Origin: a virus
Lineage: Duplodnaviria > Heunggongvirae > Uroviricota > Caudoviricetes
Length of the DNA stretch: 5,706 nucleotides
Virus record (IMG/VR): IMGVR_UViG_2690316184_000001
Location: 1-5,706 of that record
Strand: one strand, 5' to 3'
Shown here: one piece after another, positions 1-5,706 of the stretch
Position numbering within the stretch: position 1 is the first letter of the stretch
Layout of the letters: every line of letters starts with the position of its first letter
Translations under genes and position numbers: made by a program
The notes under the pieces: generated by a model
The model's input: only the letters and a program-made list of their open reading frames with translations
What the model was told of the DNA's origin: nothing
Database searches by the model: none

Positions 1-58
1 AGCGGGCTTGTAATGGGTTAAGTGATAACAGATGTCTGGAAATATAGGGGCAAATCCA
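1..58 (+). mobile_element. Right terminal end of an IS2-like (IS3-family) insertion sequence; the element body lies beyond the left edge of the window
   Basis: Positions 18-58 (TTAAGTGATAACAGATGTCTGGAAATATAGGGGCAAATCCA) match the IS2 right inverted repeat as I recall it. Lambda int homology on the - strand stops exactly at 59, directly abutting the repeat end. Only 58 bp are visible, so identity rests on the terminal repeat alone. Confidence 0.65.
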
Positions 59-208
59 CTGTATAGCTTCAGTGATTGCGATTCGCCTGTCTCGGCCTAA
101 TCCAAACTCTTTACCCGTCCTTGGGTCCCTGTAGCAGTAATATCCATTGTTTCTTATATAAAGGTTAGGGGGTAAATCCCGGCGCTCATGACTTCGCCTT
201 CTTCCCAT
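59..208 (-). pseudogene. int: Integrase Int, 5' fragment only (codons 1-50), truncated by the IS insertion
   Basis: The - strand translation from ATG at 208..206 reads MGRRRSHERRDLPPNLYIRNNGYYCYRDPRTGKEFGLGRDRRIAITEAIQ, the lambda Int N-terminus as I recall it. The start lies 23 bp inside the 3' end of xis, as in lambda. After codon 50 the sequence becomes the IS2-like terminal repeat. Confidence 0.85.
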
Positions 209-404
209 TTCTGATCCTCTTCAAAAGGCTACCTGTTACTGGTCGATTTAAGTCAACCTTTACCGCTGATTCGTGGAACAGATACTCTCTTCCATCCTTA
301 ACCGGAGGAGGGAATATCCTGCACTCGCGTACCCATCGACGAACTGTTTCAAGGCTTCTTGGGCGTCGCTGGCGTGCGTTCCACTCCTGAAGTGTCAAGT
401 ACAT
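186..404 (-). CDS. xis: Excisionase Xis (72 aa)
   Basis: Six-frame ORF 186..404 (-) translates to MYLTLQEWNARQRRPRSLETVRRWVRECRIFPPPVKDGREYLFHESAVKVDLNRPVTG..LLKRIRNGKKAKS, essentially lambda Xis from memory. The classic 23-bp xis/int overlap is present. Confidence 0.95.
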   Translation of the reverse strand: MYLTLQEWNARQRRPRSLETVRRWVRECRIFPPPVKDGREYLFHESAVKVDLNRPVTGSLLKRIRNGKKAKS

Positions 405-431
405 CGCAAAGTCTCCGCAATTACACGCAAG
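390..431 (-). promoter_or_regulatory. pI promoter region with CII activator site (TTGC-N6-TTGC) overlapping the xis start codon
   Basis: The - strand reads TTGCGTGTAATTGCGGAGACTTTGCGATGTACTTGACAC. Direct repeats TTGC (430..427) and TTGC (420..417) are separated by 6 nt, the CII recognition architecture. The xis ATG (404..402) falls in the -10 region, consistent with the known pI transcript that makes Int but not Xis. Confidence 0.65.
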
Positions 432-452
432 AAAAAACCGCCATCAGGCGGC
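432..452 (-). terminator. Intrinsic-terminator-like hairpin on the - strand, immediately upstream of the pI CII site
   Basis: The - strand transcript reads G-CCGCC-UGAU-GGCGG-UUUUUU: a 5-bp all-GC stem, 4-nt loop and U6 tract. The short stem limits confidence. Confidence 0.4.
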
Positions 453-699
453 TTGGTGTTCTTTCAGTTCTTCAATTCGAATATTGGTTACGTCTGCATG
501 TGCTATCTGCGCCCACAGCATCCAGTGGTCATAGCAGTCGCTGATGTTCTCGGCTTCGATAACTCTGTTGAATGGTTCTCCATTCCATTCACCTGTAACT
601 CGGAAGTGCATTTATCATCGCCATAAAACAAAACTCGCCGTAGCGAGTTCAGATAAAAGAAATCCCCGCGAGTGCGAGGATAGTTACTTGTTCATATTA

Positions 700-981
700 T
701 TAATCGTCAATGTATTTTGAGCATTGTGGGCAATCATCGATCCCACAATACGATTCATATGCATCCTTTATTGCGTCGCGGGCTTCAGTAAGAGTATTGA
801 ATAAGTTGCAGCTATTATCTTTTTGATATAGGTAAGTTCCTAATTTATAAGCAGAAGAAGCATCATTTCCGCTGTCTAAAATTACATCGTTATGGATTCT
901 GCACCTTGCAAGAACTCCTGATCCCATAAGGGTCTGCATAGCCCATTGCTCTTGATCTTCACACAAATCATGAATGCTCAT
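700..981 (-). CDS. ea8.5: Ea8.5-like small Cys-rich protein (93 aa from ATG at 981)
   Basis: ORF 700..999 (-); the preferred start is ATG 981..979, preceded by GAGAGGTGTTGAA (SD-like GAGG). The 93-aa length and the 295-bp spacing to xis both match lambda ea8.5 as I recall the reference coordinates. The C-terminus is Cys-rich (CGIDDCPQC), consistent with a small zinc-binding protein. Confidence 0.7.
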   Translation of the reverse strand: MSIHDLCEDQEQWAMQTLMGSGVLARCRIHNDVILDSGNDASSAYKLGTYLYQKDNSCNLFNTLTEARDAIKDAYESYCGIDDCPQCSKYIDD

Positions 982-1080
982 TTCAACACCTCTCTTCACG
1001 TTTCACACACGTTAAGATTAACAGTGTTTTTACATGCTTTGGGAGATTTATTTTATAAAAACTCTTTTAATACAAATAGA

Positions 1081-1100
1081 TATAATAGTTCACTATTATA
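1081..1100. repeat. Perfect inverted repeat TATAATAG-N4-CTATTATA overlapping the stop codon of the DUF550/DUF551 gene, inside an AT-rich intergenic spacer (982..1095)
   Basis: Arms 1081-1088 and 1093-1100 are exact reverse complements. The stem would be all A/T, so it is a weak RNA hairpin; a protein-binding palindrome or a recombination-junction relic is equally possible. Confidence 0.5.
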
Positions 1101-1893
1101 GCTCCTTTAATCGAGGCGGTTCTGGTAGAGGCATCCAGTGGGTTACACCGCCAATTGGCTCATCGTCGTCGTACTCCAATGCGGCTATATAGAACCCGTC
1201 ACGACGAGAATAAGAAATCCCGGACATTACAATGCCATCCGAAACAACAATAATGTCACCCGTTTCTTTCGGCATTCGCTCACTACAGCTTATCCAACCA
1301 TCCGGAGTCACCGGAAGCGAGAACGGCAGCACATCTCTGTGAACAAGTTTTTGCTGTGACAGGTTATCCAGAACTTTCTGTACTGCTGCATCACCGAATA
1401 CACCAAGCGCATCTGCCATAACTCCTACAACCTGATAAGCCTCAGCGCATACCGTGGATAAACCATCCGGAATTACCGGAGAGTTGCCGGGTTCTTTAAT
1501 GTGCAAGCGAGGCTCACCATCTTTTGGTTCAGGCCACTGGCGCTCCATGTTGATCTTCAATTTATCTTCCATAGCAGCGGTAATTTCAGCATCGCTGATG
1601 CCAGCACGGCGCTGTGCATCCCACAACAGGAAATGCATATCAGCCCACTCGCTGAGATCGTCTGGTTCGGCTGCGGCTTCCAGAGCCTCTTTTGAGAGGT
1701 GTTTCAGTGGACCAATGGGGCCAACGCAGCCAAATGTGGAGTCAGACCATTTGGCATGCTCGTGGCGAATCAGTTCGCGTTCCAGTGATGCCAGTGCAAT
1801 TCGTGCCAGTTCCATTTGTTCGCCACGAGTAAGCCCGTTTTCAAGCGGATTTTTAATGAACAATTCAATACGTTCTTTGGTAATAGTGGTCAT
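1096..1893 (-). CDS. Two-domain phage protein: N-terminal MazG-like all-alpha NTP pyrophosphohydrolase (DUF550 type, dATP/dGTP pyrophosphohydrolase family) plus C-terminal DUF551-type domain (265 aa)
   Basis: ORF 1096..1893 (-), ATG 1893..1891 preceded by AAGGACTAACAA (SD AAGGA). The N-terminal half carries the MazG-type acidic motif EALEAAAE...EWADMHFLLWD. The C-terminus ends ...GGVTHWMPLPEPP, the signature I associate with DUF551. Assignment is from motif recall, not a search. Confidence 0.6.
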   Translation of the reverse strand: MTTITKERIELFIKNPLENGLTRGEQMELARIALASLERELIRHEHAKWSDSTFGCVGPIGPLKHLSKEALEAAAEPDDLSEWADMHFLLWDAQRRAGISDAEITAAMEDKLKINMERQWPEPKDGEPRLHIKEPGNSPVIPDGLSTVCAEAYQVVGVMADALGVFGDAAVQKVLDNLSQQKLVHRDVLPFSLPVTPDGWISCSERMPKETGDIIVVSDGIVMSGISYSRRDGFYIAALEYDDDEPIGGVTHWMPLPEPPRLKEL

Positions 1894-1903
1894 TTGTTAG
1901 TCC

Positions 1904-2659
1904 TTAAACTGCTAGTTGCAATTGCATTTCAAAGCGGTCGCGTTGTTCACAATACGCAAGAGAACCAGGGCTATTGTGTGCCTCAATCCGTTCTACCATT
2001 AATGCTGCGCGTGTCTCTTTACTTGCAGGTGCATAAGCCCCAGACCAGGCTTTATCAATACCGATGTTTCGAGCGACGTTCGTACTATCTGCGCTGGCTA
2101 AGGGTAATTTTGTGAATATCAGCGGATTTAACATGCGCAATCCATGTAGTTTCGTAACCGGCTGACCATGCCCATCAACAATGTGACGAATCAGGTCTTT
2201 CATTCTGGCTACCGCAAGAGTTGGGCGCTTTACGTCATAGTCGCCACAACTACCGATAGCCACTCGCGGAAACTCATTGCACAAATGAATAAATCGCGCG
2301 TCACTTTCATTCATGTGCCACACTGGAACGCCAGCTAGTTTTCCGTGAGGCCACTCATTCAGAAGCGCATCATTTTCCTCCTCTCCGCCATCAATAATAT
2401 CCGGGATAATGGCAAAATCGAATCCTGGGTGATTCTTCCAGCGAGCAACAAACTCGTAGTAATCGCTCCAGTCGATTTTGTTTTTGCCAGCTGCTTTCCA
2501 GGCGGTGAATGCACCGTTGTCCAGCGCGAACGACTGACAGTATTCAGCCGCGAGATTGATCTGGCCTGAATGCGCAAAACTGATAAACGCATGTCGCCCT
2601 TTCCATGCTCTCATTGCGCACGTATCAGGAGTAATAGGCCCACCGTGGTAGTGAATCAT
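1904..2659 (-). CDS. tRNA-guanine-transglycosylase-fold protein lacking the Zn subdomain; candidate DpdA-like DNA 7-deazaguanine transglycosylase (251 aa)
   Basis: ORF 1904..2701 (-); the preferred start is ATG 2659..2657, preceded by AAAGGAGAGTGAG (SD AGGAGA), one nt after the upstream gene's stop. Three motifs resemble the TGT catalytic core: ALDNGAF (cf. TGT LTDSGGFQ), GFDFAIIPDII (cf. GSDIVMIFDEC) and ADSTNVARNIG (cf. FDCVMPTRNARNG, nucleophile Asp). There is no C-terminal CxCxxC...H zinc motif. Function is inferred from these motifs only. Confidence 0.5.
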   Translation of the reverse strand: MIHYHGGPITPDTCAMRAWKGRHAFISFAHSGQINLAAEYCQSFALDNGAFTAWKAAGKNKIDWSDYYEFVARWKNHPGFDFAIIPDIIDGGEEENDALLNEWPHGKLAGVPVWHMNESDARFIHLCNEFPRVAIGSCGDYDVKRPTLAVARMKDLIRHIVDGHGQPVTKLHGLRMLNPLIFTKLPLASADSTNVARNIGIDKAWSGAYAPASKETRAALMVERIEAHNSPGSLAYCEQRDRFEMQLQLAV

Positions 2660-2660
2660 C

Positions 2661-3068
2661 TCACTCTCCTTTGATGCGAATGCCAGTAGCGCGGATTGCA
2701 TCGATGACTTCAGAAACTTTGTATGCCATTACCGTTTGGTAATCATCGTGAAAATCTGTTCGATGAAGCATGCTGCTACGTTCCGGGAGCAGTATTTCCC
2801 GCGCTTCCAGTTCTGCAATGCGCTTTTTTGCTGCTTCCAGTTCATCCAGTAATTCCAGCACGGTAGCCGGATTAGCCTTGGCAACAAAATCCCGGACTGG
2901 CTTACAATCAATCTCCGCAATGGGTTGATTCGATGTGTAGCCATGCTGTCTTGTATAACTACCGTGACGAATAACGAAAAAATCACCATTTATTTTTTTA
3001 GCCTGCCACTTATCTTCACCGGCTTTCTCTGCCGCTTCACGCAGTGCCTGAGAGTTAATTTCGCTCAC
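2661..3068 (-). CDS. Ea22-like family protein (135 aa), shorter than the 182-aa lambda Ea22
   Basis: ORF 2661..3068 (-). The ATG (3068..3066) overlaps the orf73 stop (ATGA coupling). The N-terminus MSEINSQALREAAEKA and a coiled-coil-like stretch LELLDELEAAKKRIAELEAR resemble prophage proteins annotated ead/Ea22-like. The gene occupies the position of ea22 in the lambda gene order. Confidence 0.55.
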   Translation of the reverse strand: MSEINSQALREAAEKAGEDKWQAKKINGDFFVIRHGSYTRQHGYTSNQPIAEIDCKPVRDFVAKANPATVLELLDELEAAKKRIAELEAREILLPERSSMLHRTDFHDDYQTVMAYKVSEVIDAIRATGIRIKGE

Positions 3069-3286
3069 TTCGAACCTCTCTGTTTACTGATAAGCTCCAG
3101 ATCCTCCTGGCAACTTGCACAAGTCCGACAACCCTGAACGACCAGGCGTCTTCGTTCATCTATCGGATCGCCACACTCACAACAATGAGTGGCAGATACA
3201 GTCTGGTAGTTCAGACGACGCATTTTTATTGCTGTGTTGCGCTGTAATTCTTCAATTTCTGATGCTGAATCAATGATGTCTGCCAT
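3065..3286 (-). CDS. orf73: TraR/DksA-family C4 zinc-finger protein (73 aa), lambda Orf73-like
   Basis: ORF 3065..3286 (-), MADIIDSASEIEELQRNTAIKMRRLNYQTVSATHCCECGDPIDERRRLVVQGCRTCASCQEDLELISKQRGSK. It has two Cys pairs (C-C-E-C ... C-R-T-C) about 17 residues apart, and the 73-aa size and position match lambda orf73, a known TraR homolog. Confidence 0.75.
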   Translation of the reverse strand: MADIIDSASEIEELQRNTAIKMRRLNYQTVSATHCCECGDPIDERRRLVVQGCRTCASCQEDLELISKQRGSK

Positions 3287-3341
3287 CTTCCATTAATCCC
3301 TGAATTGTTGGTTAATACGCTTGAGGGTGAATGCGAATAAT

Positions 3342-3363
3342 AAAAAAGGAGCCTGTAGCTCCC
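3342..3363 (-). terminator. Intrinsic-terminator-like hairpin between the orf61-region ORF and orf73
   Basis: The - strand transcript reads G-GGAGC-UACAG-GCUCC-UUUUUU-AUUAUU: a 5-6 bp GC-rich stem, 5-nt loop and U6 tract. Confidence 0.5.
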
Positions 3364-3384
3364 TGATGATTTTGCTTTTCATGT

Positions 3385-3666
3385 TCATCGTTCCTTAAAG
3401 ACGCCGTTTAACATGCCGATTGCCAGGCTTAAATGAGTCGGTGTGAATCCCATCAGCGTTACCGTTTCGCGGTGCTTCTTCAGTACGCTACGGCAAATGT
3501 CATCGACGTTTTTATCCGGAAACTGCTGTCTGGCTTTTTTGATTTCAGAATTAGCCTGACGGGCAATGCTGCGAAGGGCGTTTTCCTGCTGAGGTGTCAT
3601 TGAACAAGTCCCATGTCGGCAAGCATAAGCACACAGAATATGAAGCCCGCTGCCAGAAAAATGCAT
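3385..3666 (-). CDS. Small pL-operon protein in the lambda orf61 position; start codon uncertain (ATG 3666 gives 93 aa, ATG 3600 gives 71 aa starting MTPQQENALR...)
   Basis: ORF 3385..3666 (-). The internal ATG at 3600..3598 overlaps the stop of a 27-codon hydrophobic ORF (ATGA), suggesting the shorter form may be the translated one. The frame that lambda annotates as orf61 (by my coordinate recall) hits TGA at 3669..3667 here, so the gene structure may differ from the reference. Confidence 0.55.
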   Translation of the reverse strand: MHFSGSGLHILCAYACRHGTCSMTPQQENALRSIARQANSEIKKARQQFPDKNVDDICRSVLKKHRETVTLMGFTPTHLSLAIGMLNGVFKER

Positions 3667-3676
3667 TCAGTGGTTG

Positions 3677-3868
3677 TCATACCTGGTCTCTCTCATCTGC
3701 TTCTGCTTTCGCCACCATCATTTCCAGCTTTTGTGAAAGGGATGCGGCTAACGTGTGAAATTCTTCGTCTGTTTCTACTGGTATTGGCACAAACCTGACT
3801 CCAATTTGAGCGAGGCTATGTGCCATCTCGATACTCGTTCTTAACTCAACGGGAGATGCTTTGTGCAT
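3677..3868 (-). CDS. orf63: Lambda orf63-like small protein (63 aa)
   Basis: ATG 3868..3866, translation [63 protein letters not shown]. It is 192 bp, the same length as lambda orf63, with a 28-bp overlap with orf60a as in lambda. The frame is open further upstream to ATG 3883, so the start is not certain. Confidence 0.7.
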   Translation of the reverse strand: MHKASPVELRTSIEMAHSLAQIGVRFVPIPVETDEEFHTLAASLSQKLEMMVAKAEADERDQV

Positions 3869-4026
3869 ACAGCCCCCCCCCATTTATTATTTATCTCCTC
3901 AGCCAGCCGCTGTGCTTTCAGGGGATTTCGGATTACAGAAAGGCCGGGAAATACCCAGCCTCGCTTTGTAACGGAGTAGACGAAAGTGATTGCGCCTACC
4001 CGGATATTATCGTGAGGATGCGTCAT
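3841..4026 (-). CDS. orf60a: Lambda orf60a-like small protein (61 aa here; 60 aa in reference lambda by my recollection)
   Basis: ORF 3841..4032 (-); the preferred ATG is 4026..4024, which overlaps the exo stop (ATGA) as in lambda. Translation is [61 protein letters not shown]. Confidence 0.7.
3873..3881. repeat. Homopolymer tract C9 (G9 on the coding strand) inside orf60a, just upstream of the orf63 start
   Basis: Nine consecutive C at 3873-3881, read directly. The tract encodes the W-G-G of orf60a and doubles as a G-rich SD for orf63. Confidence 0.9.
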
Positions 4027-4703
4027 CGCCATTGCTCCCCAAATACAAAACCAATTTCAGCCAGTGCCTCGTCCATTTTTTCGATGAACTCCGGCACCAT
4101 CTCGTCAAAACTCGCCATGTACTTTTCATTCCGCTCAATCACGACATAATGCAGGCCTTCACGCTTCATGCGCGGGTCATAGTTGGCAAAGTACCAGGCA
4201 TCTTTTCGCGTCACCCACATGCTGTACTGCACCTGGGCCATGTAAGCCGATTTTATTGCCTCGAAACCACCGAGCCGGAATTTCATGAAATCCCGGGAGG
4301 TAAACGGGCATTTCAGTTCAAGGCCGTTGCCGTCACTGCATAAACCATCGGGAGAGCAGGCGGTGCGCATATTTTCGTCGCGATAGATGATCGGGGATTC
4401 AGTAATATTCACGCCGGAAGTGAATTCAAACAGGGTTCTGGCGTCGTTCTCGTACTGTTTTCCCCAGGCCAGCGCCTTAGCATTAACTTCCGGAGCCACA
4501 CCGGTGCAAACCTCAGCCAGCAGGGTGTGGAAGTAGGACATTTTCATGTCAGGCCACTTCTTTCCTGAGCGGGGCTTTGCTATCACGTTGTGAACTTCTG
4601 AAGCGGTGATGACGCCGAGCCGTAATTTGTGCCATGCATCATCCCCCTGTTCGACAGCTCTCACGTCGATCCCGGTACGCTGCAGGATAATGTCCGGTGT
4701 CAT
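4023..4703 (-). CDS. exo: Lambda exonuclease (Red alpha, Exo), 226 aa, apparently intact
   Basis: ORF 4023..4703 (-), [65 protein letters not shown]...GFVFGEQWR. This is full-length lambda Exo from memory. The ATG overlaps the bet stop (GCATGA). Confidence 0.97.
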
Positions 4704-4899
4704 GCTGCCACCTTCTGCTCAGTGGCTTTCTGTTTAAGGAATCCAAGAGCTTTCACTGCTTCGGCCTGTGTCAGTTCTGACGATGCGCGAATGTCGCGGC
4801 GAAATATCTGGGAACAGAGCGGCAATAAGTCGTCATCCCATGTTTTATCCAGGGCGATCAGCAGAGTGTTAATCTCCTGCATGGTTTCATCGTTAAGGG
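4700..4899 (-). pseudogene. bet: bet (Red beta) 3' remnant: only the last ~66 codons remain, and no in-frame ATG precedes the internal Met at 4882
   Basis: The - strand frame reads ...[67 protein letters not shown], the Beta C-terminus. Upstream of about 4899 the sequence switches to the gam 5' end, and an in-frame stop lies at 4927..4925. Confidence 0.85.
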
Positions 4900-5045
4900 G
4901 GGTAGTGAATGCTTTTGCTTGATCTCAGTTTCAGTATTAATATCCATTTTTTATAAGCGTCGACGGCCTCACGAAACATCTTTTCATCGCCAATAAAAGT
5001 GGCGATAGTGAATTTAGTCTGGATAGCCATAAGTGTTTGATCCAT
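4893..5045 (-). CDS. kil: Kil (host cell-division inhibitor), 50 aa here with the C-terminus altered by the deletion junction (47 aa in lambda by recollection)
   Basis: ATG 5045..5043 preceded by CAGGAGTCCCAAAAA (SD AGGAG). Translation is MDQTLMAIQTKFTIATFIGDEKMFREAVDAYKKWILILKLRSSKSIHYPP*. There is a 32-bp overlap with the cIII 3' end, as in lambda. The 92-aa six-frame ORF 4893..5171 is this frame extended upstream through cIII in another frame. Confidence 0.8.
   Translation of the reverse strand: MDQTLMAIQTKFTIATFIGDEKMFREAVDAYKKWILILKLRSSKSIHYPP
4903..4947 (-). pseudogene. gam: gam 5' remnant: first 15 codons (MDINTETEIKQKHSL), then out-of-frame fusion to bet 3' sequence (29-codon ORF in total)
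   Basis: ATG 4947..4945; the - strand reads ATG GAT ATT AAT ACT GAA ACT GAG ATC AAG CAA AAG CAT TCA CTA, then CCCCCC TTAACGATGAAACC, which is bet-derived. The gam frame terminates at TGA after 29 codons. Confidence 0.85.
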
Positions 5046-5178
5046 TTTTTGGGACTCCTGGCTGATTAAGTATGTCGATAAGGCGTTTCCATCCGTCACG
5101 TAATTTACGGGTGATTCGTTCAAGTAAAGATTCGGAAGGGCAGCCAGCAACAGGCCACCCTGCAATGGCATATTGCAT
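5014..5178 (-). CDS. cIII: CIII (FtsH inhibitor that stabilises CII), 54 aa
   Basis: ATG 5178..5176 preceded by AAGGAGCACACC (SD AAGGAG, 6-nt spacing). Translation is MQYAIAGWPVAGCPSESLLERITRKLRDGWKRLIDILNQPGVPKNGSNTYGYPD*, lambda CIII from memory. It is absent from the six-frame track because it is shorter than 60 aa. Confidence 0.9.
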   Translation of the reverse strand: MQYAIAGWPVAGCPSESLLERITRKLRDGWKRLIDILNQPGVPKNGSNTYGYPD

Positions 5179-5204
5179 GGTGTGCTCCTTATTTATACAT
5201 AACG

Positions 5205-5227
5205 AAAAACGCCTCGAGTGAAGCGTT
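5205..5227 (-). terminator. Intrinsic-terminator-like hairpin between ea10 and cIII (at the position I would expect lambda tL3; name tentative)
   Basis: The - strand transcript reads AACGCUUC-ACUC-GAGGCGUU-UUUCG: about an 8-bp stem with one G.U pair and a 4-nt loop, with the run of U beginning inside the 3' arm. Confidence 0.4.
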
Positions 5228-5250
5228 ATTGGTATGCGGTAACGCCGCGC

Positions 5251-5619
5251 TCAGGCGGCTTTGATAGTCATATCATCTGGATCAAATATTCCTGATGTAT
5301 CGATATCGGTAATTCTTATTCCTTCGCTACCATCCATTGGAGGCCATCCTTCCTGACCATTTCCATCATTCCAGTCGAACTCACACACAACACCATATGC
5401 ATTTAAGTCGCTTGAAATTGCTATAAGCAGAGCATGTTGCGCCAGCATGATTAATACAGCATTTAATACAGAGCCGTGTTTATTGAGTCGGTATTCAGAG
5501 TCTGACCAGAAATTATTAATCTGGTGAAGTTTTTCCTCTGTCATTACGTCATGATCGATTTCAATTTCTATTGATGCTTTCCAGTCGTAATCAATGATGT
5601 ATTTTTTGATGTTTGACAT
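5251..5619 (-). CDS. ea10: Ea10-like protein (122 aa)
   Basis: ORF 5251..5619 (-), ATG preceded by TATGAGGATATGAATAG (SD GAGGA). The 122-aa length and the 72-bp spacing to cIII both match lambda ea10 by my coordinate recall. Confidence 0.8.
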   Translation of the reverse strand: MSNIKKYIIDYDWKASIEIEIDHDVMTEEKLHQINNFWSDSEYRLNKHGSVLNAVLIMLAQHALLIAISSDLNAYGVVCEFDWNDGNGQEGWPPMDGSEGIRITDIDTSGIFDPDDMTIKAA

Positions 5620-5639
5620 CTATTCATATCCTCATAGAT

Positions 5640-5667
5640 AAAAAATCGCCCTCACACTGGAGGGCAA
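5640..5667 (-). terminator. Strong intrinsic terminator on the - strand upstream of ea10 (lambda tL2-region terminator; name tentative)
   Basis: The - strand transcript reads UU-GCCCUC-CAGUGU-GAGGGC-GA-UUUUUU: a 6-bp GC stem, extendable to 8 bp with U.G and U-A pairs, a 6-nt loop, and U6 directly after the stem. Confidence 0.6.
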
Positions 5668-5706
5668 AGAAGATTTCCAATAATCAGAACAAGTCGGCTC
5701 CTGTTT

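Follow-up and report, generated by a model that had tools for sequence, protein, structure and literature searches.

A lambda-like prophage remnant of Escherichia coli with its integrase gene split by IS2

Genes and features of the locus

The window, the whole stretch of 5,706 nucleotides analysed here, is the complete draft contig LLYE01000024.1 (GCA_001484255.1), reverse-complemented (bases 1-5706). The strain behind LLYE00000000, E. coli ccpm5062 (AY62), was isolated as a commensal from the faeces of a healthy university student (PMC7133007). The map of open reading frames (ORFs) and the comparison with phage records place the prophage genes, which all lie on the minus strand, in the early-left arm of a lambda-like prophage; at the left edge is the end of an insertion sequence (Table 1). 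The mosaic block (about window 687-3026) has no lambda counterpart, and its best phage match is a Stx1a-converting phage. Three terminator-like hairpins with T tails lie on the minus strand between xis and the Ea8.5-family ORF (435-454, 631-650 and 662-681), and window 1-700 holds 5 terminator-like sites compared to 0.5 expected from shuffled sequences.

Both ends of the contig are abrupt. The left edge falls 58 nt inside IS2, a multi-copy repeat, and the contig stops there because short-read assembly breaks at multi-copy repeats that the assembler leaves unresolved; that a window begins with the end of an insertion sequence may merely mark such a boundary. At the right end (window 5650-5706), the break comes slightly before ral and is read through by another assembly with an identical IS2::int junction. 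This break is probably a repeat common to another lambdoid prophage of that genome, with no second insertion sequence involved.

Table 1. Features of the window, with strand and basis or remark
Feature	Position	Strand	Basis or remark
IS2 right (3') end	1..58	+	100% identity to annotated IS2 copies
orfB/InsD, last 15 codons (...RACNGLSDNRCLEI)	3-47, stop 45-47	+	CDS end mapped from annotated IS2
IS2 right inverted repeat (IRR), 41 bp, imperfect, ending ...GGGGCAAATCCA	18..58	+	Mapped from full IS2 copy
Run-off fusion ORF, Int 1-50 plus 19 IRR residues, 69 aa	1..208	-	Deposited as WP_205256744.1
CTGTA, right-hand copy of the 5-bp target-site duplication	59..63	.	Same 5 bp before the IS2 left inverted repeat (IRL) in 12 contigs
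int codons 1-50 (int'), partial arm-type DNA-binding domain	59..208	-	Equals lambda Int 1-50
xis, intact, 72 aa	186..404	-	Pfam Exc; G59S relative to lambda Xis; 23-nt overlap with int start
55-aa ORF	Listed between xis and Ea8.5-family ORF	-	
Ea8.5-family ORF	999..700	-	Uninterrupted in the window
Non-lambda mosaic block	About 687-3026		
dATP/dGTP pyrophosphohydrolase and DUF551 protein	1096-1893		Non-lambda block
251/265-aa protein, no Pfam hit	1904-2701		Non-lambda block
Ea22-like protein	2661-3068		Listed with non-lambda block
TraR/DksA zinc-finger protein	3065-3286		Listed with non-lambda block
exo	4703..4023	-	
bet remnant, about 60-65 C-terminal codons	4700..4896 (60-aa tail 4882..4700)	-	blastn against lambda J02459
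kil	Listed between bet tail and cIII	-	
cIII	5178..5014	-	
ea10	5619..5251	-	

The IS2 end, the breakpoint and the integrase fragments

In over 3,000 E. coli genomes, annotated IS2 copies carry at their 3' end a sequence 100% identical to the first 58 nt of the window. In an annotated 1,331-bp copy of the element, the frameshifted transposase coding sequence ends at the base corresponding to window 47 and the element itself at window 58, and the inverted-repeat arms of a full copy map to window 18-50 together with the less conserved terminal 8 nt. The IRR and IRL of IS2 measure 41 and 42 bp, respectively (PMC3299598); the former lies in the window, and the latter is present at 100% identity in contigs from other samples that carry the opposite junction. 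What a sequence-only reading of the window had called IS2-like is IS2 itself, not a relative, and differs in nothing of kind from the IS2 of E. coli. Its transposase is encoded on the plus strand of the window, opposite to int. IS2 makes its orfA/orfB transposase through a programmed -1 frameshift, and reference copies are 1,331 bp long with a frameshifted coding sequence; of this, only the end of orfB and the start of orfA are visible in this allele.

All DNA matches to int and xis begin at window 59, across 5,426 complete E. coli genomes and 50,697 phage records. In a pairwise alignment, intact int reads ...TTGGC followed by CTGTATAGC, and the window reads ...ATCCA followed by the same CTGTATAGC; the junction between bases 58 and 59 is therefore unambiguous, in agreement with the proposal that int is split after codon 50. 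The IS2/int junction in the window is thus confirmed and cannot be a chance resemblance.

Positions 208 to 59 of the minus strand encode MGRRR...AITEAIQ, identical to residues 1-50 of lambda Int, a protein from which the intact Int of relatives differs at 2 of 356 residues. The sole Pfam match of the fragment is the Arm-DNA-binding domain (residues 1-50). Intact Int has this domain at residues 1-69, a core-binding domain at about 80-171 and the catalytic domain (PF00589) at 179-345, so that the window product has neither the core-binding nor, as had been proposed, the catalytic domain. All six catalytic residues (R212, K235, H308, R311, H333 and Y342) are located on the separated remainder of Int (residues 51-356), which in a 26.5-kb contig with the opposite junction matches the intact Int of VE-V10-F at all 306 residues and which has no start codon or ribosome-binding site of its own. 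Judged by its domain content, a gene split in this way could not supply functional Int in cis, which bears out the view that int is dead. The neighbouring xis is intact, as had been read, with one of its 72 residues differing from lambda Xis.

Followed to the contig edge on the minus strand (208 to 1), Int 1-50 continues into WICPYISRHLLSLNPLQAR, and this run-off product is deposited under the label 'phage integrase Arm DNA-binding domain-containing protein, partial'. If read on into a complete IS2, the fusion would be expected to end at 78 aa (50 Int residues and 28 derived from IS2). This 78-aa form and the 59-aa and 68-aa run-off versions had no exact match in the protein collection, and a scan of window 1-700 for a hybrid promoter reading from the IS2 end into the flank found no sigma-70-like site. 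That the 78-residue fusion or the arm-less Int remainder might be expressed and do something, making the IS2 allele a selected one and not a case of neutral decay, strikes us as extremely doubtful; if it were so, the arm-binding peptide could compete for P and P' arm sites and thereby hinder incoming lambda-type phages from integrating or excising.

Among the deposited 'partial' proteins, dozens of Int N-terminal pieces end at codons 58-65. Codon 50 was considered as a recurrent breakpoint or hotspot and rejected, as the other truncated Int N-terminal proteins of the same cluster, which are contig-edge truncations, all read on through ...AIQANIEL... to codons 58-65 or beyond. Given that codons 58-65 are where lambda-type int diverges from other lambdoid int genes, such proteins look like forks in an assembly graph and not like biological truncations.

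The reciprocal junction and the target-site duplication

As the window is a complete contig, the leftward extension proposed in the sequence-only reading is impossible in this record, but a simple insertion is open to testing by predicting the product of the reciprocal junction and looking it up. The model predicts a left junction of the form ...TTGGC-CTGTA-TAGACTGGCCCCC..., which we then sought. On the int strand, the left end of IS2 reads as in-frame stops followed by ...YWLSGDSGGQS, then IQ, encoded by the last IS2 base and the duplicated TACAG, and then ANIELFSG..., that is, Int from residue 51. Whereas the in-frame stops rule out a form of the Int remainder that runs off a contig edge, candidates with an internal start, tried in its place, were found: the predicted 317-aa product (...SGDSGGQS-IQ-ANIEL...) was retrieved by exact look-up in two forms, a 'partial' integrase annotated by PGAP (WP_400227564.1) and a version with a TTG start. 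The insertion allele is an ordinary one, both int fragments of which were already public as 'partial' integrase proteins.

The left junction reads CTCAATGTTGGC CTGTA TAGACTGGCCCCC... in 12 of the 12 contigs retrieved (at least 12, all from other samples), with one NCBI draft genome, eight Logan runs, two ENA metagenomes and one NCBI metagenome record as sources. These contigs reach 28-127 nt into IS2 at 100% identity, the longest including the orfA start and making the first 12 orfA codons visible. A 26.5-kb member of the set runs from the Int remainder through an exact 15-bp attL core to ybhC, ybhJ and ybhI. IS2 integrates by way of a minicircle and comes to lie between direct repeats (PMC3299598), and CTGTA, present in single copy in intact int, flanks the element on both sides here, with the two junctions coming from different assemblies; the suggestion that window 59-63 is one copy of a 5-bp target-site duplication is thereby confirmed.

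An independent assembly, SQLT01000121.1 (14.4 kb), likewise carries the right junction and is 100% identical to the window over positions 30-5706. The sequence of this junction, GGGGCAAATCCACTGTATAGCTTCAGTG, had no exact match in the genome, metagenome and viral contig collections, and neither it nor the IS2::int allele occurs among the 5,426 complete E. coli genomes. As both junctions and CTGTA occur in separate samples, the 5-bp duplication is genuine and the allele is a real, circulating one, not an assembly artefact. The two junctions never occur in one assembly, with LLYE01 and SQLT01 carrying the right one only and JBIQUY01, the Logan contigs and the ENA contigs the left one only; we therefore infer, for ccpm5062 itself, a full-length 1,331-bp IS2 with both junctions and colinear flanks. 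For this commensal lineage, the allele could be used as a clone-specific marker.

Decay of the remnant and the place of the insertion in it

Relatives that do not carry the insertion reveal the order of decay events. The complete genomes of VE-V10-F, KD602 and GPEC1054 are 100% identical to the window over positions 59-5706 (5,648 bp) and have no IS2, and at least 13 further complete genomes, belonging to the APEC O78 lineage, are 100% identical save for a different IS2 about 730 bp away. Full-length int (356 aa) is found in all three and in the APEC O78-lineage genomes, and the gene is still intact in most strains that carry this remnant.

The deletion in bet-gam, at window 4895/4896, removes lambda positions ~32,222-33,179 (958 bp); the two sides of the junction overlap by 2 bp, gam keeps its first ~17 codons, and RefSeq labels the remnant in relatives 'Bet, missing N-terminus'. 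An identical deletion occurs in at least 19 complete genomes of chicken, duck, pig, dog and human isolates, and other relatives, at 98-99% identity, have both bet and gam intact. The sequence-only reading had offered a heavily used laboratory derivative as one possible origin, which we reject on the basis of the wild faecal source and of the same deletion in these genomes of wild isolates; the remnant itself is likewise carried by poultry, pig, dog and human isolates.

Larger losses are seen beyond the window. In the relatives with intact int, ral is followed on its right directly by a Q fragment, a porin gene and the lysis genes, the deletion from ral into Q having removed pL, N, rex, cI, cro, cII, O and P. 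SQLT01000121.1, which has the same IS2::int junction and the same bet-gam deletion as the window, shows this ral-to-Q deletion as well and the same order (ral, Q fragment, porin, lysis genes), with no N, cI, cro, cII, O or P between ral and the Q fragment. The remnant of VE-V10-F spans ~23 kb from ybhC to ybhB and includes a fusion of a terminase-large fragment with a tail-tip fragment, lom::IS1, truncated tfa and, before ybhB, debris of insertion sequences, and most head and tail genes are absent from the complete genomes with intact int. With int split and bet-gam deleted in the window and with these further losses in its relatives, the element belongs among the grounded, or cryptic, prophages, as had been proposed.

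As relatives with intact int share the large deletions with the same-junction strain, and as the IS2 allele is confined to a subset of strains, the deletions are by parsimony older than the insertion. In lambda, int expression from pI needs CII, and int-xis expression from pL needs N. With pL, N and cII lost, int and xis would have been silent in the remnant even before IS2 arrived, so far as textbook lambda regulation applies to it.

We therefore favour, with a probability of roughly 90%, a single transposition of IS2 into int of an already defective lambda-like remnant at att-lambda, between ybhC and ybhB, in a wild E. coli lineage. The element would have inserted after codon 50 of int and duplicated the 5-bp target CTGTA, separating Int 1-50, which would now be fused to 28 IS2-derived residues, from a remainder (residues 51-356) predicted to lie about 1.3 kb away, next to attL. 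By then the remnant would have been without pL, N, cII, the immunity and replication regions, bet, gam and most morphogenesis genes, so that the hit would have made little biological difference.

The principal alternatives differ in what they make of the contig end and of the order of events. A rearrangement mediated by IS2 in the genome of ccpm5062, either an adjacent deletion or an inversion between two IS2 copies through which the int remainder and attL were lost or moved, would fit a contig that ends within IS2 with its far side outside the assembly, as would the fact that the products of the left junction are not traceable to GCA_001484255.1. We regard it as very unlikely, however, as many samples show the CTGTA duplication together with colinear int-attL-ybhC flanks, the signature of a simple insertion, and as the N-terminal and C-terminal partial proteins are equally represented in UniRef (n = 3 each). 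An assembly artefact, in which a chimeric contig end joins int to an unrelated IS2 read, might be suspected in a short-read draft contig with a junction only 58 nt from its end. The identical junction in the independent SQLT01000121.1, with a different overhang (30 nt), and the reciprocal junction, again with CTGTA, in contigs from several assemblers and unrelated runs reduce this to a practically negligible chance.

Another possibility is that IS2 grounded an otherwise competent prophage by killing int and leaving xis, which is how the sequence-only reading understood the insertion when it described the prophage as locked in place. The int gene is truly split and xis is intact, and mutation of the recombinase gene is a reviewed and accepted route to prophage 'grounding' (PMC6379469). 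Yet relatives with intact int and 100% identity already carry the bet-gam and ral-to-Q deletions, the terminase/tail-tip fusion and lom::IS1, the strain with the same junction has the same ral-to-Q deletion, and the allele is restricted to some of the strains in which these older deletions are found. We hold grounding by IS2 to be highly unlikely, and the part of the earlier account that made the insertion the lock does not stand. The IS2 insertion is instead one further hit on a remnant that was already grounded, in the course of ordinary genome decay.

The int-xis region and its surroundings depart from those of lambda in the interruption of int by IS2, the non-lambda b region (window 687-3026) and the deletion of bet-gam; the stretch from N to most of Q, present in lambda, is deleted in the same-junction strain and in the relatives with intact int. 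IS2 insertions near int and xis of lambda are among the classical IS2 alleles of the 1970s. DLP12, Rac, Qin and the defective Sp prophages of O157 Sakai are likewise decayed lambdoid remnants, fixed in the chromosome, with insertion sequences and deletions. Disruption of integrase genes by insertion sequences is well documented among defective lambdoid prophages; in O157 Sakai, disrupted Int has been reported for Sp3, Sp11 and Sp12 (PMC2669165). Unlike these, the present remnant lies at att-lambda itself and keeps int-xis-attL identical to that of lambda.

The closest parallel is the allele of the APEC O78 lineage, in which the same remnant, at 100% identity, also carries one IS2 in the same orientation (positions 6735-8065 of the retrieved locus). 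There, int is uninterrupted, and the element sits in the Ea8.5-family ORF, flanked by a duplication of GTAAG (window 788-792). This insertion arose independently, so that different lineages have each received an IS2 hit, at sites no more than ~730 bp apart. We also considered the window as a derivative of the APEC O78 allele and rejected this, as its Ea8.5-family ORF is intact and shows no footprint.

The two ends of the remnant are preserved to different degrees. At attL, both core and P' arm match lambda at 100%, whereas an exact attR core was not found in VE-V10-F. Next to ybhB (positions 11578-11794 of the retrieved locus), this genome has an attR with a core carrying one mismatch (ACTTTTTTATACTAA) and a P arm 86% identical to that of lambda. 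Thus, attR is degenerate and not deleted, and the contrast with attL suggests that the two ends of the remnant may differ in ancestry.
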